From Thermoplasmatota archaeon (GTDB lineage Archaea; Thermoplasmatota; Penumbrarchaeia; Penumbrarchaeales; Penumbrarchaeaceae): a DNA stretch of 64,000 nt. Of the stretch, positions 21,365 to 35,596 are shown one piece after another. The notes beneath the pieces are model-generated. The model did no database searches, was not told where the DNA came from, and was given only the letters and a program-made list of their open reading frames with translations. Made by a program: the position numbers and the translations under genes. Where the stretch lies: NCBI GenBank assembly GCA_029762535.1, contig JARVGK010000016.1:1-64000 (forward strand), read 5' to 3'. Each line of letters starts with the position of its first letter. The stretch's first letter is position 1.

Positions 21365-21677
21365 AGTTGATCCCCGCTGCGATATATCTCTGTAAATAGT
21401 TATTCTTTTCCATGGGATGAGGGGGTTTGATATTATCGGGTCTTTTTCATGATCTTCGAAATATTTTCTGGGTCATCACATCCATTTATCATATGAGACC
21501 GGGTATTCCGATCATCACCAGCATATTTGTGATAATTGAAAATGGCCGCTCCTTTTCATGGTTTTAAGGAATAGAGGATTTCAAAAATCTATACTCCTCC
21601 TCTGAGAAAAGGACGGTCGGACCAAATATTTATATTATGGAAATGTCATGATGTAATTAGATTTGGAGGATGTTTTG

Positions 21678-22226
21678 ATGGATTATAGTTCTGCAAAAAC
21701 CGTGAGCCTGGTAGCATTGATCATGATTATCATAGGATTCATATTCGCATTGATATTGGGTTTAATATACATTATCCAAGCGATCTTTTTAGGGGGAGCG
21801 CTCATCTCCGGAGGAGAAGAAGGTTCCGGTGTAATGTGCATGCTTGTGATGATCGCCCTTGCAATTATATTGATGGCCATACCTTCCATAAAGCTCAAAA
21901 TGGCTCTTACCGTCCATAGGAATGTAAAGATGAGGAATCTCGCCAGGGAGGACAATACATATCTGGTAATACTCACCGTATTGTGCTTCCTCACCGCTGA
22001 TCTTATCTCGGGGATCATGTATATCCTCATAATCACTTCTTTGGGTGAATTGACCATACCCCGACCTATGGTCGATGAGACTCTATCATCAAATAGGTTC
22101 GATCCTTACGGGACATATAATTACGTTGATAGGGACCGAATGGGTAGCGGTTGGAACCAACAACCTCCTCAATACGGATCCTACCAGCCCCCCGGTCAAG
22201 GTCCGGATTACAACCAGCGATCCTAA
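21678..22226 (+). CDS. Hypothetical AT-rich membrane protein with Q/P/Y/G tail
   Basis: GGAGG RBS and 3-4 TM helices. Visibly lower GC than its flanks. Confidence 0.75.
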   Translation: MDYSSAKTVSLVALIMIIIGFIFALILGLIYIIQAIFLGGALISGGEEGSGVMCMLVMIALAIILMAIPSIKLKMALTVHRNVKMRNLAREDNTYLVILTVLCFLTADLISGIMYILIITSLGELTIPRPMVDETLSSNRFDPYGTYNYVDRDRMGSGWNQQPPQYGSYQPPGQGPDYNQRS

Positions 22227-22227
22227 C

Positions 22228-22441
22228 CCAAGGAACCGAGGTTCGAACCCGGCCCCTCTTAAAATAATAAATAAATAGGTGCGAGGGGCCGGATCCGTCT
22301 TTGAAAAATGCCTGTTGGCATTTTCCAGGTCTTTGGAACTATGATCGCATGCACCAAGTCACCGTTCCAAAGAAACCAAGGTTCGAATTAGGCCCCTCGC
22401 TATTTGTGTAACAAATTGGTGCGAGGGGCCGGATTCGAACC
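22228..22441. repeat. tRNA-Leu-linked 140-bp-period repeat with inverted and direct tRNA 3' copies
   Basis: GGTTCGAA at 22240 and 22380, GGTGCGAGGGGCCGGA at 22278 and 22418. Confidence 0.85.
22298..22373. mobile_element. 76-bp double-hairpin element inserted in the T-loop of a tRNA-Leu 3' copy
   Basis: GAAAAATGCC-tgtt-GGCATTTTCC plus TCTTTGGAAC-N24-GTTCCAAAGA. Removing it restores GGCCGGATCCGAACC (1 mismatch to the tRNA). Confidence 0.6.
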
Positions 22442-22501
22442 GACGAACCACTAAGGAACAGATCTTGAGTCTGTCGCCGTTAACCGCTTGGCTACCCTCG
22501 C
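22417..22501 (-). tRNA. tRNA-Leu(CAA), CCA encoded
   Basis: GCGAGGGTAGCCAAGCGGTTAACGGCG ACAGA-CT-CAA-GA-TCTGT, long variable arm, GGTTCGAATCC GGCCCCTCGC ACCA. Confidence 0.97.
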
Positions 22502-22595
22502 AGGATCGGTCGGGAGCCCACAAATATCCGTAGATATTAAAAACCTACCCTCTCCCTTGGAACGATAATAATAAGTGGATCCCCCTTTTCGGTTC

Positions 22596-23645
22596 ATGGA
22601 CCTCAAGGAATACGGCCTGGACGAGGGGATCCTCTCCGCCTTCGAGGATCTCGATCTTGAAGGCGTCGGGATCGGGAGGATCGTCAACTCCGACGGGTTC
22701 AGGATGATGACCTCCGAAGGCGAAGTCCAGGGCAGGCCCTCCAAGAAGCTTCGATCCCTGCCCGAGGGAATGCCCGTGGTTGGGGATTGGGTCGTCTTCA
22801 AGGAACTGGAAGGGGCCAACGTCATCGTCATGGTAATGCCGAGGAGGTCCTCGCTCAGCAGAAGATCCCCCGGAAAACGAACGGTCGAACAGATCGTGGC
22901 CTCCAACATCGACCAGGTGTTCGTCGTCATGGGCCTCGATCACGACTACAACATCAGAAGGCTCGAGAGGTATCTCGTGATGGTCTCGGCATCTGGAGCC
23001 GAATGCTCCATCATCCTCAACAAGGCCGACCTGGTCGAAGATCCCGCCCCCTATCTGACCGAGGTGAGAATTGCCGCGGGGAACGTTCCAGTGCATACCA
23101 TCAGCGCCCTCATTGGTCAGGGGGTAGGGAGCATTTCCCTTCCAAAGGGCAGGACCATCTGCCTCGTGGGATCCTCCGGTTCCGGCAAATCCACGCTCAT
23201 AAACCGGCTGATCGGTTCGGACCGACAGGCGACGACGCCTGTGGGTGACCATAAATCAAAAGGAAGACATACCACGACTTCCAGGGAGCTTTTCCTCTTA
23301 CCCTCCGGGGCAATGATCATCGACAACCCGGGGATCCGGGAGATACAACTGTGGGCGGATCCTTCCTCATTGGAAGACGCGTTTCCCGACATAGCCAGGC
23401 TCGCTGCGTGTTGCAGGTTCAAGGACTGCAAGCACGACCGAGAGCCGGATTGCGCGGTCCTTGAAGCCGTCTCATCAGGCGAACTGCCGCGGGATCGATA
23501 CGAGAGCTACCTGAAGCTCCAGAAGGAGATCCGTCACAACATGGTCCGATCCGATAGAGCACTTGCTGCTGCGGAGAGGGACCGATGGAAGGCTTTGATG
23601 AAGGACGTCAAGAATTATCAGGCCTACAAAAAGAGAGGCAGATGA
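22596..23645 (+). CDS. rsgA: Ribosome small subunit-dependent GTPase A
   Basis: OB fold (PVVGDWV), circularly permuted G motifs NKAD / GSSGSGKST / GRHTTT / DNPG, Zn finger CRFKDCKH.EPDC. Confidence 0.95.
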   Translation: MDLKEYGLDEGILSAFEDLDLEGVGIGRIVNSDGFRMMTSEGEVQGRPSKKLRSLPEGMPVVGDWVVFKELEGANVIVMVMPRRSSLSRRSPGKRTVEQIVASNIDQVFVVMGLDHDYNIRRLERYLVMVSASGAECSIILNKADLVEDPAPYLTEVRIAAGNVPVHTISALIGQGVGSISLPKGRTICLVGSSGSGKSTLINRLIGSDRQATTPVGDHKSKGRHTTTSRELFLLPSGAMIIDNPGIREIQLWADPSSLEDAFPDIARLAACCRFKDCKHDREPDCAVLEAVSSGELPRDRYESYLKLQKEIRHNMVRSDRALAAAERDRWKALMKDVKNYQAYKKRGR

Positions 23646-23702
23646 GAAGATACTGGAAAGTCGTTGATATGTTTTTATCCGGGATCGGGCTTGGGGTCAA
23701 GC

Positions 23703-24731
23703 ATGCGTTCCGATGACATTCGCAGGTCGAAGAGTGAGCCGGGCCTTCACATCGTCATAGAAGATAGGGGCGGGATCGTGGAGGCGCTTCATCATGTCCA
23801 TGCCGCCGTCGTTGACAGCTCCGGTCGCCTGATCGCGAGCAGCGGGGATCCAAATCACTACACCTTCACCCGCTCCTGCCTCAAACCCATTCAGGCCATA
23901 CCGATATTGGAGCACGGCGTCCACGAGGCCTACGGTCTCACGAATGAGGAGATCGCCATCATCGCAGGATCGCATTCCGGCGAGCCGGACCATATCCGAA
24001 CGGTCAGGTCCATACTGAATAAGTCTGGCATTGACGAGGCCATGCTCGGATGTGGGGGCCATGAGCCATTCCACAAGCCCACGAACTTCGAGATCGGGGG
24101 GAAGTTTTCCCCCATACACGACAACTGCTCGGGGAAGCACGCGGGATCCCTCGCTTTGACGAAATATATGGGATGGGACCTCGGGACATACCTGGACCCT
24201 TCCCATCCCGCCCAAAAGGCGGTCCTTGAGGTCGCCTGCTCCCTGGGCAATATGGAGCCAGAGAATGTCACCATAGCGCCCGACGGCTGCTCGATCCCCA
24301 ACCTTGCATACCCCATACGAAACCTGGCGCTTCAGTTCGCAAGGATCGCGGACCCGGGCTCCCATACCTTGAAGGAGGAGTGCCAGGTAGTATTCGATTC
24401 CATGATGGGGAACCCTTACATGGTCTCGGGGACCGGAAGGTTCGACAAGGACCTGATGGAGGATCACCCGCACAGGCTGCTCGCCAAGGCCGGAGCGGTG
24501 GGCCTCCAGGCCTTGGCGGCAAACATCAACGGGCGATGGCTTGGGATCGCGATCAAGATAGAGGACGGGTCCCACCCGGCATTGACGACAGCGACGTATC
24601 ATATCCTCGACGAACTTCTAATAAGGATAGGAGAGAGCATGGGAGAAAAATACAGGGATCAGACGGTCAAGACCCGATCAGGCGAGGTCGTTGGAGCGAT
24701 CCGATGTTCCGGGGAACTGCTTGTCAATTGA
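23703..24731 (+). CDS. L-asparaginase II (Rhizobium AnsA type)
   Basis: RSCLKPIQA, GSHSGEPDH, NCSGKH, DGCSIP, AIKIEDG. Confidence 0.9.
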   Translation: MRSDDIRRSKSEPGLHIVIEDRGGIVEALHHVHAAVVDSSGRLIASSGDPNHYTFTRSCLKPIQAIPILEHGVHEAYGLTNEEIAIIAGSHSGEPDHIRTVRSILNKSGIDEAMLGCGGHEPFHKPTNFEIGGKFSPIHDNCSGKHAGSLALTKYMGWDLGTYLDPSHPAQKAVLEVACSLGNMEPENVTIAPDGCSIPNLAYPIRNLALQFARIADPGSHTLKEECQVVFDSMMGNPYMVSGTGRFDKDLMEDHPHRLLAKAGAVGLQALAANINGRWLGIAIKIEDGSHPALTTATYHILDELLIRIGESMGEKYRDQTVKTRSGEVVGAIRCSGELLVN

Positions 24732-24777
24732 CCGAATGTTTTTTTAAGTTGCTCGACCATACATTTTTGGTGCTTTC

Positions 24778-25071
24778 ATGATAATGGAATTCACCTTCTA
24801 CCCATATGTCGAGAAGAACATCGAAAAGGTCGAGGAGAGATGGGGGGTCTTCAAGCTTGCGGATCGTTCCAAGAAGGTGGTCTTCATCGGCCGTGGGAAT
24901 ATCAGGAAGCATCTGTTCAACCATCTCCCGGACGGCAAGGCCCCTGCGGAAGATGCGGTGTTCTTCTCCATCGAATACTTCGACACCAAGGAGGAAGCGA
25001 TGGAGGCCTGGATCGAACAGGTAGAGGCATACCAGTCAAAGTTCCATTCACTCCCACTGTACAACAGATGA
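24778..25071 (+). CDS. Small GIY-YIG-like protein, degenerate
   Basis: WGVFKL...VVFIGRGNIRKHL...H, C-terminal LPLYN. Confidence 0.55.
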   Translation: MIMEFTFYPYVEKNIEKVEERWGVFKLADRSKKVVFIGRGNIRKHLFNHLPDGKAPAEDAVFFSIEYFDTKEEAMEAWIEQVEAYQSKFHSLPLYNR

Positions 25072-25122
25072 TGCATCAGCGTCTATTATTAATCCTAATT
25101 GGGCATTGACCCTTCGATATAC

Positions 25123-26448
25123 ATGCCCAACAAGATATGCATCAGGAAGGAAACGAAGAACCGTTGGGAACGACGGACGCCGCTGACCCCGGATAACGTA
25201 TTGAGGCTTCGGAACGACCAGGACATATCCGTAGCTGTCGAGCCCTCCGATCTCAGGGTATTCCCGGACGAGGAATACTCGGACGCGGGGGCTGAGCTGA
25301 CCCATGATCTGTCCGGATGTGATATCATCCTCGGGATCAAGGAGGTTCCGATACACGACATACTGGAAGGCAAGACATACCTGTTCTTCTCCCACACCAT
25401 AAAAGGCCAGAAGCACAACATGAGGATGCTCGAAAAACTCGTAGAGCGAAAATGCACGCTCATCGATTACGAGAGGATAACGGATGAAAGGAACAGGCGA
25501 TTGATATTCTTCGGCTGGCATGCCGGGGCGGCGGGCGTCATAGATACGCTATGGGCCGCGGGAAGGAGGCTTGAATGGGAGGGGGTGAGGAACCCATTCT
25601 CCTCGATAATGACCGCTCATGAATACTCTGACCTTCAAGGCGCAAGGGAGCACATGGCCCAGGTCGGCAGGCTGATCGCCACCTACGGGATCCCATACTC
25701 GGTGAGGCCGTTCGTCGTCGGAATAACCGGAACGGGGAACGTTTCACGCGGTGCCCAGGAGATGCTCGACCTGTTGCCCGTCGTCAACGTAAAACCCGAG
25801 GAACTACCGCTTCTAAAGAAAAGGAAGGATACTGGTAACGTGATCTACAAGGTCGTCTTCGAGGAGAAGGATATGTACTCACCTGTCGAGAAGGGCGCTG
25901 CCTTCGACCTTCAGGATTATTATGACCATCCGCAGGGATACATGTCCAGGTTCATCGATTATGTCCCCTACATGTCCGCTATAATAAACTGCGTCTACTG
26001 GGACCCAAAGTATCCCCGCCTCCTGACGAAGACCCAGGTCAAGGACCTTTACTCGGGCCATATGTCCCCAAAACTGAGGGTCATCGGCGACATCAGCTGC
26101 GACATTGAGGGGTCGATGGAAGTGACAATAAAGCCGACCATTCCTGACTCTCCGGTATTCATTTATGACCCCTGGGAGGACAAGGATATCCCCGGATGGA
26201 AGGGAACAGGCCCAGTTGTGATGGCGGTGGAGAACCTGCCGGCGGAGATCCCTTTAGAGGCCTCCGAATATTTCGGGGGGAAACTGATGGAGTTCATTCC
26301 GTTCCTGGCGAACGCCGCTTTCGATGGAGAGCTAAAGGACCTCAAACTCCCAAAACCCCTGATGAACGCCCTCATCCTTTTCAAGGGAGATTTCACTGAG
26401 AGTTACAGGTACATGGAGGATCTCCTGAATAGGAGGAATGATAGATGA
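25123..26448 (+). CDS. Lysine-ketoglutarate reductase (LKR)-type saccharopine dehydrogenase
   Basis: IRKETKNRWERRTPLTP, FFSHTIKGQ, LIDYE, GTGNVSRGA, GDISCDIEGS, MAVENLP. Confidence 0.9.
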   Translation: MPNKICIRKETKNRWERRTPLTPDNVLRLRNDQDISVAVEPSDLRVFPDEEYSDAGAELTHDLSGCDIILGIKEVPIHDILEGKTYLFFSHTIKGQKHNMRMLEKLVERKCTLIDYERITDERNRRLIFFGWHAGAAGVIDTLWAAGRRLEWEGVRNPFSSIMTAHEYSDLQGAREHMAQVGRLIATYGIPYSVRPFVVGITGTGNVSRGAQEMLDLLPVVNVKPEELPLLKKRKDTGNVIYKVVFEEKDMYSPVEKGAAFDLQDYYDHPQGYMSRFIDYVPYMSAIINCVYWDPKYPRLLTKTQVKDLYSGHMSPKLRVIGDISCDIEGSMEVTIKPTIPDSPVFIYDPWEDKDIPGWKGTGPVVMAVENLPAEIPLEASEYFGGKLMEFIPFLANAAFDGELKDLKLPKPLMNALILFKGDFTESYRYMEDLLNRRNDR

Positions 26449-27749
26449 AGAGCGTTCTGGTACTCGGGGCAGGGCTGGTTTCAAAGCCCCTCATCTCATA
26501 CCTGATAGACCGCTGTGGATATTCTCTCACGGTCGCCAGCCGCACCTTGGATAAGGCCCAAAAGGCGATAGGGGAGCGCAAGATGGGGTTTGCCATGAGT
26601 TTCGACATCGATTCGGACCCCTCCCTCAGGGAGATCGTCTCCCAGCACGATGCCGTGGTCTCCCTTCTTCCATACACCCATCACCTGGATGTCGCCAGAG
26701 CGGCCATAGCCGAGGGTGTGCATCTGATCACCACTTCATATGTGAGCGATGCCATGAGGGACCTGGACCAAGAAGCCGAGGATTCGGGCATCACCCTTCT
26801 GAACGAGATAGGATTGGACCCGGGCATAGACCACATGGAGGCCATGAGGATAATGGATGCCGTCAAGGAAAAGGGGGGTGAGGTTCTGGAGTTCGTATCA
26901 TACTGCGGGGGGCTGCCTGCTCCCGAGGCTAACGACAACCCTTTCGGTTACAAGTTCTCCTGGAGCCCCAAGGGAGTGGTCCTCGCCTCGAGGAACAAGG
27001 CTAGGTTCAGAAGGAACGGCAAGGTCGAGGAGATCCCCGGAAAGGAACTGTTCGCCAACTACGAGACCGTCGACATACCCGGCCTGGGAAGCTTCGAGGG
27101 CTATCCCAATCGGGATTCCGTCCCATATGCGGAAATTTACGGGATCCCGGAGGCCAGGACCATACTCAGGGGGACGCTAAGGAACAAGGGCTGGTGCGAC
27201 ACATGGAAAGGGCTTCACGATATCGACATGCTCGGGGACCATCCGGTCGAAGGTGACACCTACCTCGAAATGATGGACTCGTTGTTACCTGGAGAGGGTG
27301 AAGTTCGAGACAGGATCGCATCGCTGTTGAGTACGTACGATAATGAGCTGGCCCTCTCGAACCTGGAGTGGCTCGGGCTTCTATCTGATTCTCCCGTGAT
27401 GGACCGCACTAGCATCGTGGACGCTCTTTCGAAGCTCCTTGAATCAAGACTGAAATACAAGGAAGGGGAACGGGACATGATCGTTCTCCAGCACCGCTTC
27501 GAGGTAAAGCTCCCGGAGGGAGAGAGGACACTGCTATCGACCATGATAGATTTCGGGATCCCGGGAGGGGACTCGGCAATGTCCAGAACCGTAGGGATCC
27601 CGGCCGCGATAGGTGTGGACATCCTGCTGAAGGAAAAGGATATTCCAAAGGGTGTTGTGATCCCGACGATCCCCGCTATCTACGAACCCGCATTGAAGAG
27701 GCTTGGGGATGAGGGAATAAAATTTGAAAATACAGCAGAGGCCCGTTAA
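26445..27749 (+). CDS. Saccharopine dehydrogenase (glutamate-forming; Lys9/SDH type)
   Basis: LGAGLV, EIGLDPGIDH, SYCGGLPAPE, YKFSWSP, EGYPNRDS, AMSRTVG. Confidence 0.93.
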   Translation: MKSVLVLGAGLVSKPLISYLIDRCGYSLTVASRTLDKAQKAIGERKMGFAMSFDIDSDPSLREIVSQHDAVVSLLPYTHHLDVARAAIAEGVHLITTSYVSDAMRDLDQEAEDSGITLLNEIGLDPGIDHMEAMRIMDAVKEKGGEVLEFVSYCGGLPAPEANDNPFGYKFSWSPKGVVLASRNKARFRRNGKVEEIPGKELFANYETVDIPGLGSFEGYPNRDSVPYAEIYGIPEARTILRGTLRNKGWCDTWKGLHDIDMLGDHPVEGDTYLEMMDSLLPGEGEVRDRIASLLSTYDNELALSNLEWLGLLSDSPVMDRTSIVDALSKLLESRLKYKEGERDMIVLQHRFEVKLPEGERTLLSTMIDFGIPGGDSAMSRTVGIPAAIGVDILLKEKDIPKGVVIPTIPAIYEPALKRLGDEGIKFENTAEAR

Positions 27750-27773
27750 GGACCTCTGCATACCGCCCTCACT

Positions 27774-28313
27774 TTAGTTTCCGGAGTTCCTGTTCTGGGC
27801 TCCGTTCCCGCCGTTTGTCTGGTCTCGATCCCTGTCCTGGATCTGGGTTCCGGACCGATCCTGTTCTTCCTGGTCATACGGCTCCTCTGAGGATCCAGGT
27901 TCGCCCTCATCGCAGGAGCCGTCCTTGCTCTGATCGCGGGACCGATCCTGGACATTCTCAGGTTCGCTCTCATCGCAGGAGCCGTCCTTGCTCTGCTCAC
28001 GGGACCGATCCTGGGCGTTCTCAGGTTCACCCTCATCGCAGGAACCGTCCTTGCTCTGCTCGCGCGCCAGCTCGCTAACCTGCATCCCGAACTCACCTGG
28101 ATCGCCCTCGCTGCAGGACCTATCCTTCAAGCGTGCACGATCTCTGATAAGGGCCCCCATGGTCTTTTGGACCCTTTCCAAGGCAGGCGTTCCCTCCGCC
28201 GCTCGTAGGATCGAGCCTTCATCCATCGCACCTGCTGCGGAAGAGATAAGGGCGACCCCTATCAGGATCCCCAACGCCGCAAGGGAGCCGAGGACCAATG
28301 CTTTGGTTTTCAT
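27774..28313 (-). CDS. Exported low-complexity protein with 21-aa 'QDRSREQSKDGSCDEGEPENA' repeats
   Basis: Signal peptide, GGAGG RBS, tandem repeats. Confidence 0.75.
   Translation of the reverse strand: MKTKALVLGSLAALGILIGVALISSAAGAMDEGSILRAAEGTPALERVQKTMGALIRDRARLKDRSCSEGDPGEFGMQVSELAREQSKDGSCDEGEPENAQDRSREQSKDGSCDESEPENVQDRSRDQSKDGSCDEGEPGSSEEPYDQEEQDRSGTQIQDRDRDQTNGGNGAQNRNSGN
27896..28064. repeat. 63-bp coding tandem repeat, ~2.7 copies
   Basis: caggttc(g/a)c(c/t)ctcatcgcagga at 27896, 27959 and 28022. Confidence 0.9.
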
Positions 28314-28364
28314 TTTTTCCTCCTGGGCACATTACACGTAACCCATAGGAGACAGGACCATCGA

Positions 28365-28490
28365 TACTTAAACCGATTATGGAACGCGGCTCTAGATGTG
28401 GTACGGTCCTCTAGATATCGGAACGCCCCGATACTTCATGGTGGTTAACCCTATCTCGATTAGAGCATCGTACCATATTTGACTTATATA
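28365..28490. promoter_or_regulatory. Divergent promoter with three GGWACG-N3-CTCTA operator-like boxes and two TATA boxes
   Basis: Boxes at 28381 and 28400 (direct) and 28461-28474 (inverted). TATA-like TTTAAGTA (- strand) and CTTATATA (+ strand) each lie 8 nt from a box. Confidence 0.6.
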
Positions 28491-28511
28491 TCGCGACATA
28501 TACTAAGGAAC

Positions 28512-29519
28512 ATGAGAAAAGCGGCTATCGCGGCATCGATCCTCCTGGCCTCGATATTACTTTTATCGGGTTCGGCAAATGCCAATGATCCGATGGGAGG
28601 ACGGGGCTCCGATGAAGGAATGAGGCAAAACGGAACACCTGGTGGCCCATCAGGTTCGCCCCATCCCTGGGGAGCGATGGAAGGGGGCAGGAATATCGGC
28701 AATGAGATGATGTTCAGGTATTCCCGTAACGGACCGGACATTGGGATAACGGATAAGGACGGAAAAGGTATAACGATGAGGATATCCGATGTTGGATTGT
28801 CGGGGGATGACGGATATTATCTCATAGATATTGCCGAAAGGAACTGGACATACAGCGAACTCGATGATGAGAACGGCGGGGCCATAGGAAGATATGACCT
28901 TTCGTCCTCATGGAGACCTGGAAATTCAACAGTGAACATTTCTCTCGAGTTCGAGCTAGAATGGACACATGAAGGCGGACAGCTCCGATACCGTCTAAAT
29001 ATCGAGGGCATACCCGATGACGGCATGTTAACGATACGCAGCACCTATCGTCTGGAATCCTTTGATGAATGGGGGCCCGGGTTCAAGGCGGAAGGCAGAG
29101 GAGTTAGAATAATAGGGGAGAGGGAGGACGATCTCGGAAGGATCGAGAGCGCAGGCCGTATGAGATACCGATCATCGAACTCATGGGAGGAGGCCCCGGC
29201 CGAGATAACGATAACACCATCTGACGACGAAACGTCCGTGAACACGTCAGCTACCCTTGAAAAAGGCGCTGATTCCATATCCACGGAAGCAACGATAACC
29301 CTGTTCGAGAGCTTCGTGAACGAACTAAGCCATGTCATCGATGGAGGGATCAGCTACGTAAGGGACCATATCGCATCCTTCCTCATCGGTCTCGGATCCG
29401 CAATGATGGTCGTTGTCGTCTCTTTGGCCCTCCTATCCCGGATCAGAGTGGACGGGTCCGAGGGTGTCGTTTTGGAGAAGAACAGATATTACCGCAGCGT
29501 CAAAGGACGGAGTCGATGA
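28512..29519 (+). CDS. Hypothetical membrane-anchored exported protein
   Basis: Signal peptide MRKAAIAASILLASILLL, C-terminal TM. Confidence 0.75.
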   Translation: MRKAAIAASILLASILLLSGSANANDPMGGRGSDEGMRQNGTPGGPSGSPHPWGAMEGGRNIGNEMMFRYSRNGPDIGITDKDGKGITMRISDVGLSGDDGYYLIDIAERNWTYSELDDENGGAIGRYDLSSSWRPGNSTVNISLEFELEWTHEGGQLRYRLNIEGIPDDGMLTIRSTYRLESFDEWGPGFKAEGRGVRIIGEREDDLGRIESAGRMRYRSSNSWEEAPAEITITPSDDETSVNTSATLEKGADSISTEATITLFESFVNELSHVIDGGISYVRDHIASFLIGLGSAMMVVVVSLALLSRIRVDGSEGVVLEKNRYYRSVKGRSR

Positions 29520-30006
29520 TGCGGTCGAATATACTGGTCTTGTACATCACCAAAAGCGTTCCCATCAGGTCCGGTTCGGCAACGTGATAGAACCTTTCCC
29601 GGCCGACCGTTTCGGCTCGGAGTATCCCCATCCCCTCAAGCCTCCTGAGGTGATAGGAGAGAGTCGCGCTCGTGAATGAAAAGCTCTCCAGAATGCGGCT
29701 GGGATTCGATCCGGGATGTTCGATCAGATAGAGGACTATTCCACGGGGGATCTCTCTCCTTAGAATGGATAGCGCCTTCTTCTCGTCCCTCGAAAAACTG
29801 TCGCGAACGTAATACCTGACATGTCCATCCACATGTTCGGAGGTGATCATCTCGGCCTTGATCATGGCGTTGATATGGAAATCTAGCTGCCCTACCGCCA
29901 CTTCGAGGTCCCTTGAGATCCCCCTGAAATGCAGCCCTGGATTGGCCCTGATATGCTCGAATATCCTTTTCCTAACCGGGAGATCGAGCAGGTCCTTCAA
30001 CATCAT
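29500..30006 (-). CDS. Double winged-HTH transcriptional regulator (ArsR-like, archaeal)
   Basis: RKRIFEHIRANPGLHFRGI...LDFH, and a second HTH HPG...ATLSYHLRRLE. Confidence 0.88.
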   Translation of the reverse strand: MMLKDLLDLPVRKRIFEHIRANPGLHFRGISRDLEVAVGQLDFHINAMIKAEMITSEHVDGHVRYYVRDSFSRDEKKALSILRREIPRGIVLYLIEHPGSNPSRILESFSFTSATLSYHLRRLEGMGILRAETVGRERFYHVAEPDLMGTLLVMYKTSIFDRIIDSVL

Positions 30007-30269
30007 CTCCTCCACAGGGCGATGGACAAGAACCCTATGATCACACCGAGGACTATAATGAAATACCTGACCCATCCTGGAACGAACAGCGTTCCTATTT
30101 TCGACAGGATGTCAAGGGAGGAATAGATGAGGATCAAAGCCCCCGATATAGACAGTAACGGCGGCCCGATCCCTCTCCTGTATCTGAATGCGATGATCCC
30201 AAGGGCGATCATTATCACGGAAAGGCACAGCAATGCCCCCGAGAGCAGATCGAAAGGGAAAAGCCGCAT
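30003..30269 (-). CDS. Small 3-TM membrane protein coupled to the wHTH regulator
   Basis: Three hydrophobic helices. Stop overlaps the regulator start. Confidence 0.7.
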   Translation of the reverse strand: MRLFPFDLLSGALLCLSVIMIALGIIAFRYRRGIGPPLLSISGALILIYSSLDILSKIGTLFVPGWVRYFIIVLGVIIGFLSIALWRR

Positions 30270-30290
30270 AGGGGATAATATGCTACTTCT

Positions 30291-31217
30291 TTATTGAACC
30301 TTGCCGGAGCGATACCTAAGAATGAATCTCTTAACGGCCTTCTCGGCAACGACCAGATATATAGAGAAGGATATCAAAAAAATCGAAAGAACCCTCACGG
30401 CGGAGGGTGCCTCGTAGAGAAAGGCCCATGCCAGGAACGAGGCTATGATGGGTTTGAGGTAGAAGAACGATGATCCCTTCGACACCTCGATCTTGTCGAG
30501 GGCTATGAAGAAGAGCATGTAGGCCAACCCCACTGAGATGAAGGACATGAACAGCAGCCCCGCCCAGCTCATCGCCGATATCGAGGCTATATCGAGCGAC
30601 GCCCCCCTTATCATAAGAAGCGGGATCATGAACAGGGATCCCACGATCAGGCTTATGGGGGTCGTGACCCTAGGATCTATCCTTTTGTTCAATGGCTTCA
30701 TCATCACCGAATAGACGGAGAAGCATATAACGGAGAAAAGGATCATTATAGGGGATGAATTGAACGATAACCCACCCCCTTCAGAGACCGAGATTATCAC
30801 GATCCCTGCGGCTCCGAGGACGATCCCCGCCATTCCCACGATGCCCATCCTCTCTTTGAGGATGAGAAGGGACAAAGGGGCTATGAACAACGGCACAGTG
30901 GATATCAATGTCGCCGCGGAGGACGCGCTTATGCCGACGAGCGCAAGATGGAAAAGGGTGAACGTTGCCGTTATGCCAAGCATTGAAAGGAGCATGAGCT
31001 GGGTCCAATCCCTCAACCGGGTCTCCTTCCAGTTCACCTTCTTTCGATATATCCAGATGGCCGGGACCAGTACCAATCCCCCGAGAAAGAAGCGTAGAAA
31101 AGCGATCCATAGAGGATGCATATCATCATTGATGGCCTTGGTGATCACCTCTATCGTGCTCCAGAGGAATATCACCCCCAATAGCATCGATATGGCCCCT
31201 CCTCCATCAACCTTCAA
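30291..31217 (-). CDS. DMT/EamA family transporter
   Basis: 10 TM in two repeats, AFLRF, LKER motifs. Confidence 0.9.
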   Translation of the reverse strand: MKVDGGGAISMLLGVIFLWSTIEVITKAINDDMHPLWIAFLRFFLGGLVLVPAIWIYRKKVNWKETRLRDWTQLMLLSMLGITATFTLFHLALVGISASSAATLISTVPLFIAPLSLLILKERMGIVGMAGIVLGAAGIVIISVSEGGGLSFNSSPIMILFSVICFSVYSVMMKPLNKRIDPRVTTPISLIVGSLFMIPLLMIRGASLDIASISAMSWAGLLFMSFISVGLAYMLFFIALDKIEVSKGSSFFYLKPIIASFLAWAFLYEAPSAVRVLSIFLISFSIYLVVAEKAVKRFILRYRSGKVQ

Positions 31218-31347
31218 CGCATGACTCTCCTGAAGCTGATCACGAACGACAAAAACCTGGTCGTATTAATCCTTTTTCTCGCCATTCACGACGCATCGCT
31301 ATCAGGATTGTTTTATATACATACCCGCAATAAGGTTGGGTTCCACC

Positions 31348-33231
31348 ATGAAATGGCCTAGCCCGACCAGTTGGTTCCGAGATACGTATAGCAAGTTCCC
31401 CGCCGTTTACTGGACAGCCATGAGCTTCGAGCTCATGGAGAGAGGGGCATACTATCTGATGATGCCCATTCTGGTCATCCATGCCCAGTACAACGTCGGG
31501 GTTCCCCTCTACATGGCAGCATGGATCACCATGTTCATGTACCCGCTCCAGTACGGTATTCCGATCCTGAGCGGGGCCCTCGCCGAGAAACTGGGATACC
31601 GAAAACAGATAATCTTCGCCTTTTCCGTGCTCTCTATCGCGTATATGTTCCTCTCGTTCGCCAATTCCACCGTCACGATAATTCTATCCGTGATGCTCGT
31701 GGGGATCGGCATCGGCTCGTACAAACCCCTCGTTTCGGCCACAGTGGCCAAATCCACATCGGACAAGGACCGAAACTATGCCTACAGTATCTACTACTGG
31801 ATCGTGAATTTCGCCGCGGCCGTATTCCCAACGATATGGACCCTGATGGAGATCGCCAAGATCGTCGACCCTACCGTTTACGCTTACGTGTTCAGGGTCG
31901 GTTCCATATTCATGGTCGTTAATATATTCACGGCCATACTCATATTCAAAGAGGTCCCCCGAACAGGCCAGGTCAGGACCGTCAAGGACGTGGGAAGGAA
32001 CATTTCCATCGCCTTCAGGGATGGGAAGTTCGTTGTCATGGTCCTTTTGATTGGAGGGTTCTGGGCGCTATATTCCACGATGCTGAACGCCCTTCCGTTG
32101 ACCCTTTTCAATTTCAAACTGGTCCCCATATGGTTCACCCCCATGATGTTAGGGATATTCAACCCCGCCACCATAATACTCCTGGGTTTCAAGATAAGCA
32201 AGTTCGTGGAGAAGATGGAATCGCTGAAGGTCGTCATGTCGGGGATCATACTCTATCTGGTAGGACTTGCGATAATCGGTCTGACCTTGAATTGGATCCT
32301 TGTGATCGTCGGGATCATCATCGTTTCCATAGGAGAGTTCATGGTCGCTCCCGGTTACCTCGCATTCGTCTCGAAGCTGGCACCCAAAGAGAAGGTCTCG
32401 GCATACATAGGTACGAACTTCCTCTCGTCCATGGTCGGACTTGTTGGGGGAACCTTCGTCTTCGGAGGACTATATACCATCGTAGGGGCGGGCATGGGGA
32501 GGCCCAGGTTCTTCTACGGCCTGCTTATCGCAATAGGCCTTCTGCTTCTCATCGGATTCATGATCTACTACAAAGCATGGGGCCGGGAGATCATAGACAG
32601 GTCCAAGAAGATCAGGATGATGCAGGAGGGTGGTTCGATCGAGGATTATGCAACGACCGAGCCATTCATCATGAGGATATTCGACCGGAAGAGATCCGCC
32701 ATAGTACCGATGCTCCTCATCCCAATAATATTGGTATCGACGTTCATGATGGGAACGAATGAATATTTCCCGCCCCCTTCCCAGACGGATGATGTCATCG
32801 TCGTTTACGAGGAGAACCTCATACAGATAGGGTCCAACGGATACCTACAAGAGGGTGCTTCCGAGATCATCACTGTGGAAGTGCCTGGAACGCCGATGTG
32901 GTTCAACCTCAGCCTGTCATGGCAGGACGAGCCCGCCGGCGGATTGTTCAGGGAGAACCTGGCAGATTCGTTCAGGATCGTTCTGACCTCGCCAGAAGGC
33001 AGAGTGTATGATGGATGCAATGCCGAATCATACACCGGAAGCCTGACCATCAGTTTCAACACCCCTCCCGAGGACAGGCCTACTTTGTCCGGTGAATGGA
33101 CCGTCACCGTGACATGCGTCGAAGCGGGGGACGTCATATCAAGAGGGCCCTTCGGCCTCATCACCTTCGAAGAGGACAACGGAAATGATTGGGCCCTGAC
33201 CGGGTCTATAACGACACTCGTTGAGGCTTGA
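31348..33231 (+). CDS. POT/PTR-like MFS peptide transporter with extra TM and C-terminal extracellular beta domain
   Basis: ELMERGAYY (ExxERFxYY), GSYKP, YSIYYWIVN, SIGEFMVAP, and a ~150-aa soluble tail. Confidence 0.85.
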   Translation: MKWPSPTSWFRDTYSKFPAVYWTAMSFELMERGAYYLMMPILVIHAQYNVGVPLYMAAWITMFMYPLQYGIPILSGALAEKLGYRKQIIFAFSVLSIAYMFLSFANSTVTIILSVMLVGIGIGSYKPLVSATVAKSTSDKDRNYAYSIYYWIVNFAAAVFPTIWTLMEIAKIVDPTVYAYVFRVGSIFMVVNIFTAILIFKEVPRTGQVRTVKDVGRNISIAFRDGKFVVMVLLIGGFWALYSTMLNALPLTLFNFKLVPIWFTPMMLGIFNPATIILLGFKISKFVEKMESLKVVMSGIILYLVGLAIIGLTLNWILVIVGIIIVSIGEFMVAPGYLAFVSKLAPKEKVSAYIGTNFLSSMVGLVGGTFVFGGLYTIVGAGMGRPRFFYGLLIAIGLLLLIGFMIYYKAWGREIIDRSKKIRMMQEGGSIEDYATTEPFIMRIFDRKRSAIVPMLLIPIILVSTFMMGTNEYFPPPSQTDDVIVVYEENLIQIGSNGYLQEGASEIITVEVPGTPMWFNLSLSWQDEPAGGLFRENLADSFRIVLTSPEGRVYDGCNAESYTGSLTISFNTPPEDRPTLSGEWTVTVTCVEAGDVISRGPFGLITFEEDNGNDWALTGSITTLVEA

Positions 33232-33244
33232 TCATCAGAGAGGA

Positions 33245-34177
33245 TTACCAGGGGATCGCGATCGCCATGAACGCCGCATAGCTCAAAAGCAGCAGGAACC
33301 CCTCCTTCCGTCCCATCCTCTTCCTGCTGAGTATGACCCCGATGAGGGTCACGAGCATCATCGCGGGTATGATCCCGCCCGCCATGGTCTGGGAGATCTC
33401 CAGTGGGTCTATTATGCCGGACACTCCGATTATCATGAGGATGTTGAACAGGTTTGATCCCAGTACATTCCCGATGGCGATGCCCTCATGGCCCTTGATC
33501 GCTGCGATGACGGCTGTTAAAAGTTCGGGGAGCGAGGTGCCAAATGCGATTATGGAAAGTCCAATAAAAGTATCCTCAACGTTGAGCAGTTCGGAAAGCC
33601 TGACCGCGGAATTTACAAGAATAGGAGAACCGGTGAAAAGCAGGATGCTGCCGATCAAAGTCATTATTAGGAGAAGCGGTAGTGGACGGGTCTTCTCTAT
33701 GAACTCCGCCGATAGTTTGGACGTTCTGAAAAGGTAGATCGTGTATCCGATGTAAGCGAGGAGGATCATCGCTGCTTCCCATCTCTGGATCCCTCCGATG
33801 GCGGCGACAGCGAAGAGGGCCGTTGCGAGTATAACGGCCCATCCATCCCTGATGACCATCTTATCGGAGCGTATCGGCAAGATGATCACCCCGACCGCTA
33901 GAACTACGCCCACATTGAAGGCGTTGGACCCCACCACATTACCAACGGCGATCCCATTATAGCCCGTTATCGAAGCGGTGACAGATGTGGCAAGCTCGGG
34001 CAGTGATGTCGCGGTCGCAACGAGAGTGACGCCGATGAGATGGCCGCTGATCCCAATTTTTCTTGCTAGGCCCGCCGCCCCCTCTATGAGGAAGTTGGCC
34101 CCTCCGACCAACATCCCAAGTCCGATGATCGTGCCGAGGACCGGCAATATCAACTCTAACACGGATAGCACGGACAT
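33245..34177 (-). CDS. Ca2+/Na+ antiporter (YrbG/NCX family)
   Basis: Alpha repeats ATSLPEL / GTSLPEL and GNVVGSN / GNVLGSN. Confidence 0.93.
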   Translation of the reverse strand: MSVLSVLELILPVLGTIIGLGMLVGGANFLIEGAAGLARKIGISGHLIGVTLVATATSLPELATSVTASITGYNGIAVGNVVGSNAFNVGVVLAVGVIILPIRSDKMVIRDGWAVILATALFAVAAIGGIQRWEAAMILLAYIGYTIYLFRTSKLSAEFIEKTRPLPLLLIMTLIGSILLFTGSPILVNSAVRLSELLNVEDTFIGLSIIAFGTSLPELLTAVIAAIKGHEGIAIGNVLGSNLFNILMIIGVSGIIDPLEISQTMAGGIIPAMMLVTLIGVILSRKRMGRKEGFLLLLSYAAFMAIAIPW

Positions 34178-34223
34178 ATGAGCTGATATATGAAATAATG
34201 GTCGATATTCTCGCTGCCGCCTA

Positions 34224-34904
34224 TCAGATGATGAACTCCTTGGCCTCTCCATCCACCAGTTCGTCATTCAATACTTCTTCGAACGAGGCTATGAACCGCT
34301 CCAATGATGCGATGCTCGGATCTCGACTAGCACCCTCCTCACCCAAGTCTATCCTCTCGGGAGAGAGAAGGGCCATCTTTATGCCGGATCCCTTAAGCTC
34401 CAGGGCTAAAGATCGGGTCAATACCGCCACGGCGGTCTTGGCCGCCCCGTGTGCAGCCACCATCCTGTAACCCATGTTCATTCCTGTTCCAGCAAAGCCG
34501 ATGTTCACGATCCTTCCCACACATCTCCGATACATCGCTTCGATGGCTGCGCGAGACATGAAGAATACGGGATAGATGGAGCCTTCGATTGCCGCGCGGA
34601 ACTCACACTCGCTCATATCGAGAAGTGAACCCTCGAAATAGCTCGAGGCGTTATTGACAAGGAGGTCCAGGCGTCCCGCCTCGTTCTCCACCTGCTCTAC
34701 CATAGATCTCGCATCGGTCTCGGACCCGGGATCGCCATGGAGGACCCCGAACCCCTCTGATATAGCCCTTTCGAGTTCGGGACCACTTTCTCGCCTTGTG
34801 GTTATGAAGACACGATATCCCCTATTCAATAATACTTTCGACATATGGGATCCCAATCGCTTCCTACCTCCGGTCACAATGGCGACTCTATGATGTTCCG
34901 ACAT
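34224..34904 (-). CDS. SDR family oxidoreductase (FolM/pteridine-reductase-like)
   Basis: VTGGRKRLG, LVNNAS, HGAAK at the YxxxK position. Confidence 0.8.
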   Translation of the reverse strand: MSEHHRVAIVTGGRKRLGSHMSKVLLNRGYRVFITTRRESGPELERAISEGFGVLHGDPGSETDARSMVEQVENEAGRLDLLVNNASSYFEGSLLDMSECEFRAAIEGSIYPVFFMSRAAIEAMYRRCVGRIVNIGFAGTGMNMGYRMVAAHGAAKTAVAVLTRSLALELKGSGIKMALLSPERIDLGEEGASRDPSIASLERFIASFEEVLNDELVDGEAKEFII

Positions 34905-34965
34905 GATCTCATCATTGGTATGACCATCATCGATTTAATATGTGGCGGGGTTCGGATACCTTTCA

Positions 34966-35506
34966 TCAATGAGTGCTATACAAAATAAAAATGGTGCGGG
35001 CGCCGGGAACTTTGGATCGTCCTCTCATTGACGATGATTCAGATCCAAAGGGCCAGGAAAATGCCAGAGAGCAAGTGTAATTTGGCATTTTTCGTATCGA
35101 ATTATCTTGAAGCACTCTTTTTCGGAACGTTAAGGATCGACGAAAGAAAAAGAGTGCGGGCGCCGGGACTTTTGGATCGTCCTCTCATTGACGATAATTC
35201 AGATCCAAAGGGCCAGGAAAATGCCAGAGAGCAAGTGTAATTTGGCATTTTTCGTATCGAATTATCTTGAAGCACTCTTTTTCGTAGCGTTAAGCATCGA
35301 CGAAAGAAAAAGAGTGCGGGCGCCGGGATTTGATACTTGGAAAGACCGATGGTCTTTCCGCATCTCGTGAGCTGCTTATCGTCAAAGAGGAATACGCATC
35401 TCACGAGAACCCGGAACGTTTAGTAAACGATTCGTGGGGTTCAAATCCCTCTCGTCAATGAGTGCTATACAAAATAAAAATGGTGCGGGCGCCGGGATTT
35501 GAACCC
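34966..35506. repeat. tRNA-Gly-linked array: three units (160, 160, 169 bp) delimited by tRNA 3'-end copies
   Basis: GTGCGGGCGCCGGGA at 34994, 35154, 35314 and 35483. A 43-bp direct repeat spans 34966-35008 and 35455-35497. Units 1 and 2 are near-identical. Confidence 0.93.
35334..35408. mobile_element. 75-bp double-hairpin element inserted in the T-loop of a tRNA-Gly 3' copy
   Basis: GGAAAGACC-gat-GGTCTTTCC plus TCTCGTGAG-N28-CTCACGAGA. Removing it restores GTGCGGGCGCCGGGATTTGA|ACCCG exactly. Confidence 0.65.
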
Positions 35507-35556
35507 GAGTTTTTAGCTTGGCAAGCTAAAGTGATACCAGGCTACACTACACCCGC
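35481..35556 (-). tRNA. tRNA-Gly(GCC), CCA encoded
   Basis: GCGGGTGTAGTGTAGCCTGGTATCACT TTAGC-TT-GCC-AA-GCTAA AAACTCGGGTTCAAATCCCGGCGCCCGC ACCA. Confidence 0.97.
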
Positions 35557-35596
35557 ATGCGGGAGAGGGTTGAAAGCGCTACCTCTTTTTAAACTT

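Follow-up and report, generated by a model that had tools for sequence, protein, structure and literature searches.

Gene-less fold-back repeats linked to tRNA 3' ends in an uncultured Thermoplasmatota archaeon and its relatives

Results

Gene-less fold-back units behind two tRNA genes

In the 64,000-nt window examined here (the whole stretch of DNA analyzed), taken from the genome of an uncultured Thermoplasmatota archaeon (93% complete, 40 tRNA genes), gene-less and tightly folding DNA units lie behind two tRNA genes, tRNA-Leu(CAA) and tRNA-Gly(GCC). Both loci exemplify a lineage-wide family of fold-back repeats that are gene-less and tRNA-linked: downstream arrays of 1–5 units are found at about 20 of the 40 tRNA genes, with extra copies of the tRNA tail spaced 90–190 nt apart. 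Each unit terminates in a duplicate of the final 14–19 nt of its local tRNA (S), in most cases also includes the tRNA 3' end in antisense (S'), and carries between the two a cassette composed of a long-loop hairpin (L) and a short hairpin (Sh). Our best, though tentative, explanation is that the units are non-autonomous palindromic DNA modules that accrete at tRNA 3' ends. The first locus comprises the following features.

22417–22501, minus strand: tRNA-Leu(CAA), anchor of the locus (ARAGORN; Rfam tRNA, 56 bits)
22380–22400, minus strand: S', the 3' end of tRNA-Leu in antisense, positions about 52–72 (inverted repeat I4, 21 nt, 90% complementary; fold)
22331–22372, minus strand: long-loop hairpin L, CTTTGGAAC, 24-nt loop, GTTCCAAAG (arms kept in three genomes)
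22303–22326, minus strand: short hairpin Sh, GGAAAATGCC-aaca-GGCATTTTTC, with G.T at pair 2 (pattern search; relatives)
22279–22302, minus strand: junction aaagac and S, in which the tRNA-Leu tail is directly repeated from A59/T60 through position 74 (direct repeat D8; left extension 2)
22240–22278, minus strand: second A/T-rich spacer and S'2, a second antisense tail copy, where the Leu array ends distally (inverted repeat I6, 19 nt, 95%)

At the second locus, one class A unit is followed by two class B units, in which the cassette is inverted relative to the tRNA.

35481–35556, minus strand: tRNA-Gly(GCC), anchor of the locus (ARAGORN; Rfam tRNA, 64 bits)
35314–35480, minus strand: class A unit (match to covariance model R1, 59 bits; fold), with a trailer containing ATTGACGA, antisense T-arm 35437–35450, L 35363–35408, Sh 35339–35359, and junction aagtat followed by the S copy CAAAT-CCCGGCGCCCGCAC at 35314–35332
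35154–35313, minus strand: class B unit 1 (R1 match 68 bits, plus strand), with hairpin H1 35272–35317, an 18-nt linker, Sh 35216–35253, L 35169–35211 and S copy 35154–35168
34994–35153, minus strand: class B unit 2, in tandem with unit 1 and 94–95% identical to it (R1 match 66 bits), with Sh 35056–35093, L 35010–35050 and S copy 34994–35008
34947–34993, minus strand: second copy of the native tRNA-Gly trailer, its antisense T-arm decayed, marking where the array ends distally (direct repeat D4, 62 nt, 92%)

The plus strand at 22303–22372 reads GAAAAATGCC-tgtt-GGCATTTTCC-aggt-CTTTGGAAC-N24-GTTCCAAAG, and the reverse complement of both 35010–35093 and 35169–35253 reads GAAAAATGCC-loop-GGCATTTTCC-tggcc-CTTT(T)GGATC-N23-GATCCAAAG. 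The first-pass annotation had described one double hairpin at tRNA-Leu and, inverted, twice at tRNA-Gly, and this proved correct base for base; the difference between GGAAC/GTTCC (Leu) and GGATC/GATCC (Gly) that it called compensatory is a true double change. The pattern GGAAAATGCC-N3-20-GGCATTTTYC occurs three times in the window versus 0.00 times expected (100 shuffles). As also reported there, the class A unit at tRNA-Gly (its unit 3) keeps the layout but differs in the sequence of its stems (TCTCGTGAG/CTCACGAGA and GGAAAGACC/GGTCTTTCC), and in element orientation a T-loop-like word (aagtaTCAAAT, gtaTCGAAT or aaagaCGGAT) comes after the short hairpin in every case. Absent from that annotation were the antisense tail copies at 22380–22400, 22240–22258 and 35437–35450, which close the units into a fold-back; in the predicted fold, the Leu S' has two pairing partners, the tRNA tail and the S copy downstream. 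At tRNA-Leu(CAA), no T-run separates the tRNA from the unit. In H1 at tRNA-Gly, the tRNA tail and T-run pair with an A-run and GTGC.

A family at about half of the tRNA genes and in related genomes

We built the covariance model R1 from 27 cassettes and counted matches with E < 1e-6 as strong. The genome scan yielded 35 strong matches, all within tRNA-derived arrays; 32 of them are no more than 700 bp away from a tRNA gene, mostly on its downstream side, in line with the enrichment that had been proposed, and the other three belong to one array displaced from tRNA-Trp. Cassettes run with and against the tRNA in a ratio of about 1:1. R1 also matches 17 of 23 genomes from the same family (EX4484-6-type Thermoplasmatota), so the earlier suggestion of a structure-defined, gene-less family anchored at tRNA 3' ends holds, with copies at about 20 tRNAs and in relatives. 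Contig breaks and N-gaps of the assembly fall within the arrays.

These counts refute a one-off local duplication combined with ordinary terminator hairpins, an explanation that we consider wholly improbable. The two class B units are indeed a plain 160-bp tandem (34980–35299), and H1 does include a T-run, but covariation (below), cassettes common to unrelated tRNAs and a simple terminator scan that found no terminators all speak against it.

The cassettes are portable, whereas S is local. The cassettes at tRNA-Glu(CTC) and tRNA-Leu(TAA) are 93% identical, yet their S copies share only 8 of 14 positions; the shared block stops exactly at S, which matches the local tRNA in both cases. Class A precedes class B in all six mixed arrays, an order too regular for random insertion.

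Tail copies and the junction in the T-loop

Across the genome, 33 of 43 S copies are identical to the local tRNA over positions 61–73. Their left ends fall at T55 (13 copies), C56 (3), position 59 (13) and T60 (14) and never extend beyond T54, and S measures 14–15 bp in class B and 18–19 bp in class A. Since the left ends form two discrete classes, the junction lies at T54^T55/C56 in one unit class and at 58–60 in the other. The insertion point previously placed at T55^C56 was thus correctly located in or at the T-loop, but it is not a single site. The left and right joints of the units are fixed, and because S' and S are mutually inverted, a unit fits in either orientation (class A or B) and still ends in a direct tail copy.

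Read on the tRNA strand, S and then T-rich sequence form the end of every unit. Among 13 class A units, 7 have an S' that matches the local acceptor stem. The antisense copy often runs past the discriminator into the CCA and the T-run, indicating that it copies the gene and not an RNA helix. In class B units, the word TCGTC(A/G)AT stands on both sides of S, and several tRNAs are followed directly by a T5 run ahead of their unit.

Stem pairing, strand bias and the case for trailer RNAs

The covariation anticipated for the stems is present, with compensatory changes at 15 of 19 cassette pairs, and 87.8% of the cells in the cassette alignment are paired compared to 73% in shuffles. The stems are almost wholly Watson-Crick. 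In the element's own orientation, G.T exceeds A.C by 29 to 1 in this genome, which hints at one folded strand; in antisense cassettes, the conserved G.T reads A.C on the tRNA strand. The stems of the relatives show no strand bias (742 Watson-Crick, 12 G.T and 17 A.C pairs), in comparison to 426 Watson-Crick, 17 G.T and no A.C pairs in the tRNA stems of this genome. In class A units, each of the two strands folds much better than its shuffles do, and the DNA fold of the Gly class A unit has z = −5.6 and −5.35 on the two strands.

Using a weight matrix derived from 36 tRNA promoters, we found no enrichment of the tRNA-type promoter motif (BRE/TATA), with 0.40 and 0.27 matches/kb in arrays versus 0.33 in the background. 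Rfam returned nothing beyond tRNA, either at the gathering threshold or at E ≤ 1, and RF00391 (RtT) was not matched. The missing promoter motif, the lack of strand bias in relatives and the folding of both strands together favor modules of DNA.

These observations bear on the main rival explanation, a serious though unlikely one, in which read-through from the tRNA promoter would yield the units as functional trailer RNAs. Such an RNA would adopt a closed three-way fold whose S':S closing helix reproduces the acceptor/T-stem helix and discriminator, and RNase Z, possibly with RNase P and the CCA enzyme, would free small RNAs, comparable to the E. coli tRNA-linked repeats (TLRs) RrA/B/F. The S and T-rich ending of every unit, the fit of S' to local acceptor stems, the missing T-run at tRNA-Leu(CAA) and the purifying selection described below are consistent with this proposal, as are the TLRs of E. 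coli rrn operons, which are read through and processed, with one 3' end lying 3 nt past the repeated block (PMC8144298). Against it, one cassette in two runs antisense to the tRNA and presents A.C in place of the conserved G.T, G.T and A.C are about equal in relatives compared to 17:0 in genuine tRNA stems, the antisense copy frequently reaches into the CCA and T-run, T5 runs intervene between several tRNAs and their units, and neither a promoter motif nor an Rfam family was found. The absent promoter enrichment, the antisense half and the almost pure Watson-Crick pairing likewise weigh against the first-pass proposal of small RNAs with variable loops.

Conservation and turnover between relatives

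Orthologues of the Leu(CAA) unit occur in another genus, where the stems are invariant and the loop is scrambled: in three genomes of that genus the L arms are 9/9 identical and the loop 8–11/24. Sh is 21–22/24 identical in two of these genomes (G010 and G015), in which the distal end of the array (spacer and S'2) is conserved too, and the junction is 6/6 in both and 4/6 in the third (G004). The flanking genes are about 75–80% identical or unalignable across genera. This retention of stems with a scrambled loop indicates purifying selection and argues against a simple selfish element; a dead insertion would not be kept in such a state. Strong purifying selection acts on stems, junction and S in the orthologous Leu(CAA) and Thr(GGT) units, with one compensatory change in Sh.

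The number of units at tRNA-Gly(GCC), in turn, varies within one genus, from one (G008) to three (G013). We sought a clean empty-site allele and found none, contrary to the empty and filled sites expected earlier, and an uninterrupted target form is absent from this genome.

Candidate mobilizing enzymes

As the first-pass annotation stated, the window contains no mobilizing enzyme. A co-occurring Y1/RAYT transposase, which it suggested looking for, is likewise missing: the 93%-complete genome gave 0 matches to PF01797, whereas control genomes do match, and TnpB (PF07282), reverse transcriptase (RVT) and casposase are absent from it as well. It does contain one XerA-like and one IS110 gene, and the sole Cas1 belongs to a CRISPR locus, adjoining Cas2 and an array of 36-bp repeats. 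The idea of a mobile element therefore stands with respect to the family and its tRNA anchoring but not with respect to present mobility, given the lack of these enzymes, of a clean empty site and of an uninterrupted target.

The units share several properties with REP/BIME/REPIN elements: they are short, gene-less and palindromic, occur in 3' flanks in either orientation at tens of copies per genome, combine conserved stems with free loops and persist vertically over long times. REPs, by contrast, have no tie to tRNA genes and no copy of the neighboring gene's end, and the RAYT (Y1) gene of REPINs has no counterpart here. A derivation from a single-strand transposon (HUH, IS200/IS605 or REP-RAYT type), with hairpins as enzyme recognition ends, one active strand and a fixed T-loop word as the insertion site, appears very unlikely to us. 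It would account for two adjacent near-perfect hairpins, the asymmetric conserved G.T in this genome, insertion both ways round and fixed joints, but the stems of relatives lack strand asymmetry, the Y1/RAYT gene is missing, and such elements leave no direct repeat of the 14–19 bp that flanks the units here. The same repeats and the absence of PF01797 and PF07282 set the units apart from IS200/IS605 miniatures (PATE).

Direct repeats of a tRNA tail are a classical integrase footprint. A genuine integrase-bearing element sits at tRNA-Trp in this genome and duplicates the same block, from A59/T60 to +2, the limits of its att repeat being those of 27 of 43 S copies. One could thus regard the units as remnants or miniatures of integrase-type elements, resembling CIMEs and tandem accretion, in which each tyrosine-recombinase integration left an att copy (S), with the hairpins and the repeated TCGTCRAT words having once served as attP arm sites; the TCGTC(A/G)AT words flanking S in class B units agree with this. 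We nevertheless judge it improbable. An integrating element must bring its own S, while near-identical cassettes here carry unrelated, local S on both sides; about 20 different tRNAs would each require an element that matches, and there is only one such integrase; the ends of the tRNA-Trp element bear no likeness to the cassette, and viral contigs yielded no cassette. The units are also only 90–190 bp long with a conserved fold, unlike CIMEs, and have been conserved far longer than debris should last.

Casposons offer a parallel for the duplication. In Aciduliprofundum boonei, a related member of the phylum, the T-loop of tRNA-Pro serves as the 'leader' for a casposon and 15 bp are duplicated at the tRNA 3' end (PMC5137440), which favors the interpretation as accreting DNA modules; duplication of a ~15-bp block per insertion, as in CRISPR repeats, would yield polar repeat-insert-repeat arrays. 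The A. boonei duplication, however, overlaps the tRNA by only 5 bp, and casposons have terminal inverted repeats, Cas1-solo and PolB, whereas Cas1 occurs here only in the CRISPR locus. We saw no casposon-like ends or terminal inverted repeats on the units, although the duplication size does fit.

Discussion

The closest known counterparts of these units are the E. coli TLRs (the 178-bp repeats of tyrT, or RtT, and rrA/rrB/rrF), described by Egan & Landy 1978 and Rudd 1999 (reviewed in PMC8144298). Both are gene-less, lie directly downstream of a tRNA (or rRNA) gene at one to five per locus and are largely unexplained in function, and the E. coli unit ends in an 18–19-bp copy of the upstream mature RNA 3' end, as the archaeal units end in their tail copy. 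There is no sequence or Rfam relation between them. The family described here differs in its archaeal host, its presence at about half of all tRNA genes, its antisense tail copy and its conserved two-hairpin cassette, which occurs in both orientations and moves between tRNAs.

If the units are accreting DNA modules, they would behave like REP/BIME elements or mini-casposons. We infer a site-specific joining reaction that, with the T-loop as landmark, would set a cassette behind a tRNA gene through a putative enzyme and re-create the block from T55 or T60 to N73(+1–4). Arrays could then lengthen via unequal exchange between S copies, and cassettes could be exchanged among tRNA loci. The palindromes would subsequently be retained by selection on the DNA or on either strand, the host benefit perhaps being a stop in both directions, or an insulator, after a strongly transcribed gene. 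The change in unit number at tRNA-Gly(GCC) and the tRNA-Trp element that duplicates the same block favor this explanation; the lack of a mobilizing enzyme and of a clean empty site counts against it, as does S', which in many units is fitted to the local tRNA and which a portable element cannot bring along.

The tailoring of S' would also fit a rather improbable alternative, in which the antisense tail copy in each unit is a working part and not a by-product. As a guide, S' might let a putative recombinase put the cassette beside a matching tRNA, amounting to target-templated, reprogrammable insertion. As a mimic, S' and S together would form an exact copy of the acceptor/T-stem helix, giving dozens of putative tRNA-like mini-RNAs that bear the identity of the neighboring tRNA and may be processed by RNase P, RNase Z and the CCA enzyme.

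E. coli tRNA-linked repeats have been known since 1978 and are still unexplained. Their hallmark, the tail copy, now appears in an archaeal class and is far more elaborate there, with half of the tRNA genes involved, antisense copies and a portable two-way cassette. As some units are deeply conserved while others turn over, the origin of the tail copies and the purpose of the hairpins become testable by comparison. The family also bears on MAG assembly, as the breaks and gaps inside the arrays illustrate, on tRNA annotation and on how tRNA genes draw mobile DNA.

Two tRNA loci with tail copies and paired hairpins

Both tRNA genes of the window lie on its minus strand, and the sequences that the first-pass annotation had quoted for a double-hairpin element anchored at the T-loops of tRNA-Leu and tRNA-Gly were found, by direct reading, exactly as given. 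Three matches to the pattern GGAAAATGCC-N3-20-GGCATTTTYC lie in the window, and 100 shuffles gave none. Relative to the Leu copy, both Gly copies are reverse-complemented; they sit within a 160-bp tandem repeat (94-95% identity). The pair described as compensatory, GGAAC/GTTCC vs GGATC/GATCC, is a true double change. Antisense copies of the tRNA 3' ends, which that annotation did not include, and direct copies add to these features.

tRNA genes, tail copies and promoters at the two loci
22417-22501, minus strand: tRNA-Leu(CAA)
35481-35556, minus strand: tRNA-Gly(GCC)
22380-22400, 22240-22258, 35437-35450: antisense tRNA 3'-end copies (inverted repeat pairs I4, I6)
22279-22296: direct copy of the tRNA-Leu tail (direct repeat families D3, D8)
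35314-35332, 35154-35168, 34994-35008: direct copies of the tRNA-Gly tail (direct repeat families D3, D8)
22540-22555, 35592-35607: examples of tRNA promoters

The genes between and around both loci have housekeeping functions (RsgA GTPase, asparaginase II, saccharopine dehydrogenase, Na/Ca exchanger, SDR, PhoU/TrkA-C) and include no recombinase, in agreement with the earlier statement that the window holds no mobilising enzyme. A 187-aa ORF without Pfam match (21663-22226, plus strand) stops 13 nt short of the distal antisense tRNA-Leu tail copy, so that the Leu array is squeezed between two convergent features. A 63-bp tandem repeat at 27896-28084 (2.7 copies, 78-92% identical) consists of in-frame 21-codon repeats inside an ORF and is unrelated to the tRNA units.

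A genome-wide family with covarying stems

When the units were searched by BLAST in the full assembly (2.96 Mb in 102 contigs, 93% complete), nearly all matches fell in tRNA flanks. Downstream of 20 of the 40 tRNAs reported by ARAGORN we found 1-5 further copies of the tRNA's own tail, spaced 90-190 nt apart; these copy numbers are lower bounds, because arrays break or confuse assembly. Of 43 tail copies, 33 match the local tRNA perfectly over positions 61-73, and most extend 0-4 nt beyond the discriminator. They start at T55 (13), C56 (3), position 59 (13) or T60 (14), and none beyond T54. The joint thus falls at T54^T55/C56 for one class of unit and at 58-60 for the other, rather than only at the proposed T55^C56.

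We aligned 27 cassettes, each a hairpin with a long loop (L) plus a short hairpin (Sh), in their own orientation. Double-sided changes were present at 15 of 19 stem pairs, and 87.8% of cells were paired, compared with 73% in shuffles and at most 62.5% with the partner slid. The covariance model built from this alignment (R1) has 53 matches in the genome, 35 of them with E < 1e-6. A tRNA gene is no more than 700 bp away from 32 of these strong matches, whereas the other three belong to an array on contig C102 whose sense tail copies derive from tRNA-Trp; one tRNA adjoining R1 matches is an intron-bearing tRNA-Ser(GGA) overlooked by plain ARAGORN. Stem covariation and further copies at other tRNAs, both anticipated by the first-pass annotation, were thus found, and trivial duplication is hardly credible as an origin of the two loci. 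N runs occur inside tRNA arrays on contigs C21, C33, C47 and C69, and the very short contigs C3 (503 bp) and C61 are made up of repeat units.

Anatomy of the two unit classes

The Leu unit and Gly unit 3 (class A) read, along the tRNA strand, from the tail S (the sense copy) through an A/T-rich spacer of ~16-30 nt, the antisense copy S', TT-GGGTTC, L, Sh and a short junction to a second S. S' runs antisense to tRNA positions ~52-73 or to just the T-arm; L has a stem of 9-13 bp and a loop of 17-28 nt; Sh reads GGAAAAT..ATTTTYC; and the second S begins at T55 or C56. A cassette inserted into a second sense T-arm was considered and rejected: GGGTTC before L is conserved irrespective of the local tRNA and is therefore part of the unit. 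With DNA parameters, class A units give closed multi-branch folds on either strand (z on the two strands: Leu unit, -6.2 and -4.9; Gly unit 3, -5.6 and -5.35).

Gly units 1 and 2 (class B) carry the cassette inverted relative to the tRNA, in the order S, an extra hairpin H1, an 18-nt linker, Sh, L and S. H1 forms between the tRNA tail with its T-run on one side and an A-run plus GTGC further downstream on the other; the linker ends in an antisense T-loop-like word, and the second S begins at position 59 or 60. Since S' and S mirror each other as inverted copies, class B amounts to a reversed class A-type unit whose own far copy has decayed. Cassette orientation relative to the tRNA is ~1:1 across the genome, and class A comes first in all six arrays with both classes. 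The word (A/T)TCGTC(A/G)AT (ATTGACGAT on the opposite strand) appears in the H1 loop and in the L loop of class B units, for example at 35019-35041 and 35179-35201 of the window and in the alignment that includes relatives. Its conservation across genera, in contrast to the changing stems, suggests that a protein may bind it.

Vertical descent and apparent exchange between tRNA loci

Three genomes from another genus (G010, G015, G004) carry orthologues of the window's Leu(CAA) unit, with distance (38-40 nt) and orientation unchanged.

Identity of unit parts to the window's Leu(CAA) unit (G010/G015/G004 unless stated)
L arms: 9/9 in all three
Junction: 6/6, 6/6, 4/6
S: 16-17/18
Sh: 21-22/24, two genomes
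24-nt L loop: 8-11/24
First spacer: 7/16

As the stems are kept while the protein-coding flanks of these units are only ~75-80% identical, or unalignable, the alignments indicate purifying selection on the stems and a free loop. A hypervariable loop, diversifying in a spacer-like manner, was rejected; the flanking DNA of the compared genomes is itself saturated or unalignable, so the L loop is simply unconstrained. A module near tRNA-Thr(GGT) is also common to relatives and shows one compensatory Sh change (GCC/GGC vs CCC/GGG). Since orthologous unit pairs, junctions included, resemble each other more closely than paralogous cassettes inside one genome, they point to vertical descent and not concerted evolution.

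Cassettes also appear to move between tRNA loci. Those of Glu(CTC) and Leu(TAA) are 93% identical, those of Glu(CTC) and Gly(CCC) 87%, and those of Glu(TTC) and Leu(TAA) 85%; the S copies around them are local in every case, matching at 8/14 positions, which is little above expectation from common C-richness and the GCAC ending. In whole-unit alignments the common block runs from GATAC ahead of Sh to GGT past L, with its limit exactly at S. The unit behind tRNA-Val(GAC) has local S copies and an S' closer to tRNA-Val(TAC) (one mismatch vs three). Off-type tails, namely CCCAATACCCGCAC in the tRNA-Trp array (C102:630-650), a better match to a Gly-type tail than to the Trp tail, and the foreign tail-like block CCCTGCACTCGTAC in the Ser(TGA) array, are possible traces of exchange between arrays. 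Empty sites, which the first-pass annotation had proposed to look for, were not recovered: a search for an uninterrupted antisense-plus-sense T-arm palindrome yielded two chance matches and no true site.

The nearest public records are MAGs labelled Thermoplasmatales or Thermoplasmatota archaeon, including ex4484_6 and EX4484-6, which bears out the first-pass placement among Thermoplasmatota. Within the family, 17 of 23 genomes had R1 matches, bearing out the expected copies in relatives; R1, which is sequence-bound, matched none of 14 genomes in other families of the class. Of the 28 best matches in relatives, 22 follow a tRNA gene at a distance of 39-330 nt, and most of the others are at contig ends. 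By direct reading, a second family of the order has units of the same architecture with other stem sequences after tRNA-Gly(GCC). In three further families, the tRNA flanks sampled contained extra tail copies; in two others, they contained none. Array turnover is evident at the orthologous tRNA-Gly(GCC), where even members of a single genus differ in unit type and number (G008 has one unit, G013 three). Ten pattern matches in metagenome contigs included only one true module, behind tRNA-Ser(TGA).

DNA units or RNA products

Rfam searches of the window, at the gathering threshold and at E <= 1, returned nothing besides the two tRNAs, and seven outlying loci had no match. C/D-box, H/ACA and split or permuted tRNA candidates were rejected, as neither in-register box motifs nor Rfam support was found. 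Most tRNA genes of this genome carry the promoter consensus GAAAGGTTTATATA, which begins ~47 nt ahead of the mature 5' end; the Ala-CGC, Ala-GGC, Val-GAC, Leu-CAG, Leu-TAA and Arg-TCT tRNAs do not, and may be fed from elsewhere. A matrix from these promoters found 0.40 and 0.27 sites/kb in arrays vs a background of 0.33; because of this lack of enrichment, which speaks against independent RNA genes, we abandoned the model of a mini-gene that has a promoter of its own.

A trailer RNA co-transcribed with the tRNA, the second-ranked explanation, is rather unlikely, given that half of the cassettes are antisense to it and that the antisense tail copy frequently takes in CCA and the T-run. The stems of relatives' cassettes also contain G.T and A.C pairs in similar numbers (742 Watson-Crick, 12 G.T, 17 A.C), unlike the acceptor and T stems of this genome's tRNAs (426, 17 and 0, respectively). 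Within this genome, read in the cassette's own orientation, G.T outnumbers A.C by 29 to 1, a weak hint of one preferred strand, although a single G.T, inherited at pair 2 of Sh, accounts for much of the excess.

Candidate enzymes and the tRNA-Trp element

Y1/RAYT (Y1_Tnp), reverse transcriptase (RVT_1) and the TnpB zinc ribbon are all absent from this 93% complete genome. The lack of Y1/RAYT makes an HUH-type element, one of the enzyme associations suggested earlier, very improbable; the other, tyrosine recombinases, is represented by one XerA-like gene and an integrase at tRNA-Trp. There is one IS110 copy, far from the arrays. A casposon was rejected, the sole Cas1 being part of a normal CRISPR-Cas locus with adjoining Cas2 and an array of 36-bp repeats. 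This locus (C5:54000-72000) looks complete, with a 555-aa Cas1-containing ORF, a 91-aa ORF at the Cas2 position and repeats (CTCTCCATGGCCTTTTGGCCGTGGCCCCATTGAAGC) spanning ~3 kb.

The integrase is the second PF00589 match, just downstream of the intron-containing tRNA-Trp (C53:7507-8098) in a gene truncated where the contig stops. Contig C102 (1-805) now opens with the array that formerly belonged to tRNA-Trp (units A, A, B), right behind a lone Trp-tail copy. An integrase-bearing element thus appears to have integrated in tRNA-Trp, separating the tRNA from its old array. A small wHTH-like ORF lies at C102:3-260(-). The att repeat of the element, ATCCCAGTGCCCCCACTT, runs from A59/T60 to +2, and because 27 of the 43 S copies share these limits, a recombination reaction duplicating exactly this block probably exists in this cell. 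The shared limits would also fit an origin of the units as integrase remnants, but we consider this improbable: shared cassettes are flanked by local S, the ends of the tRNA-Trp element do not resemble the cassette, and viral contigs gave no cassette match.

Relation to known systems

Closest in kind are the tRNA-linked repeats (TLRs) of E. coli, of which there are 22, distributed over ten loci; the last 18-19 bp of each repeat the 3' end of the upstream tRNA or rRNA exactly. Apart from three rrn-linked ones, whose processed read-through transcripts bind Hfq and CsrA in vitro, TLRs have no known function (PMC8144298). The archaeal units share the position and the tail copy, but not homology, as judged by the lack of an Rfam match. 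REP/REPIN elements resemble them in palindromes, conserved stems and long persistence, but need RAYT, which this genome lacks. In the Aciduliprofundum casposon, a T-loop segment serves as landmark and 15 bp are duplicated at the tRNA-Pro 3' end (PMC5137440); by analogy, such integration could be a good model for the rise of local tail copies at each insertion, although no casposase is present here. Integrase accretion accounts for the repeat limits, but not for local S around shared cassettes.

The explanation we rate best, while holding it tentatively, is that palindromic DNA units would accrete at tRNA 3' ends. The first-pass observation is confirmed and its interpretation supported in part. 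A full-text search of the available literature, covering tRNA-linked repeats, T-loops together with miniature elements in archaea, and EX4484-6 together with tRNA, yielded no description of the present archaeal system. Both loci are members of a large archaeal family of tRNA-linked fold-back repeats, apparently new to the literature.
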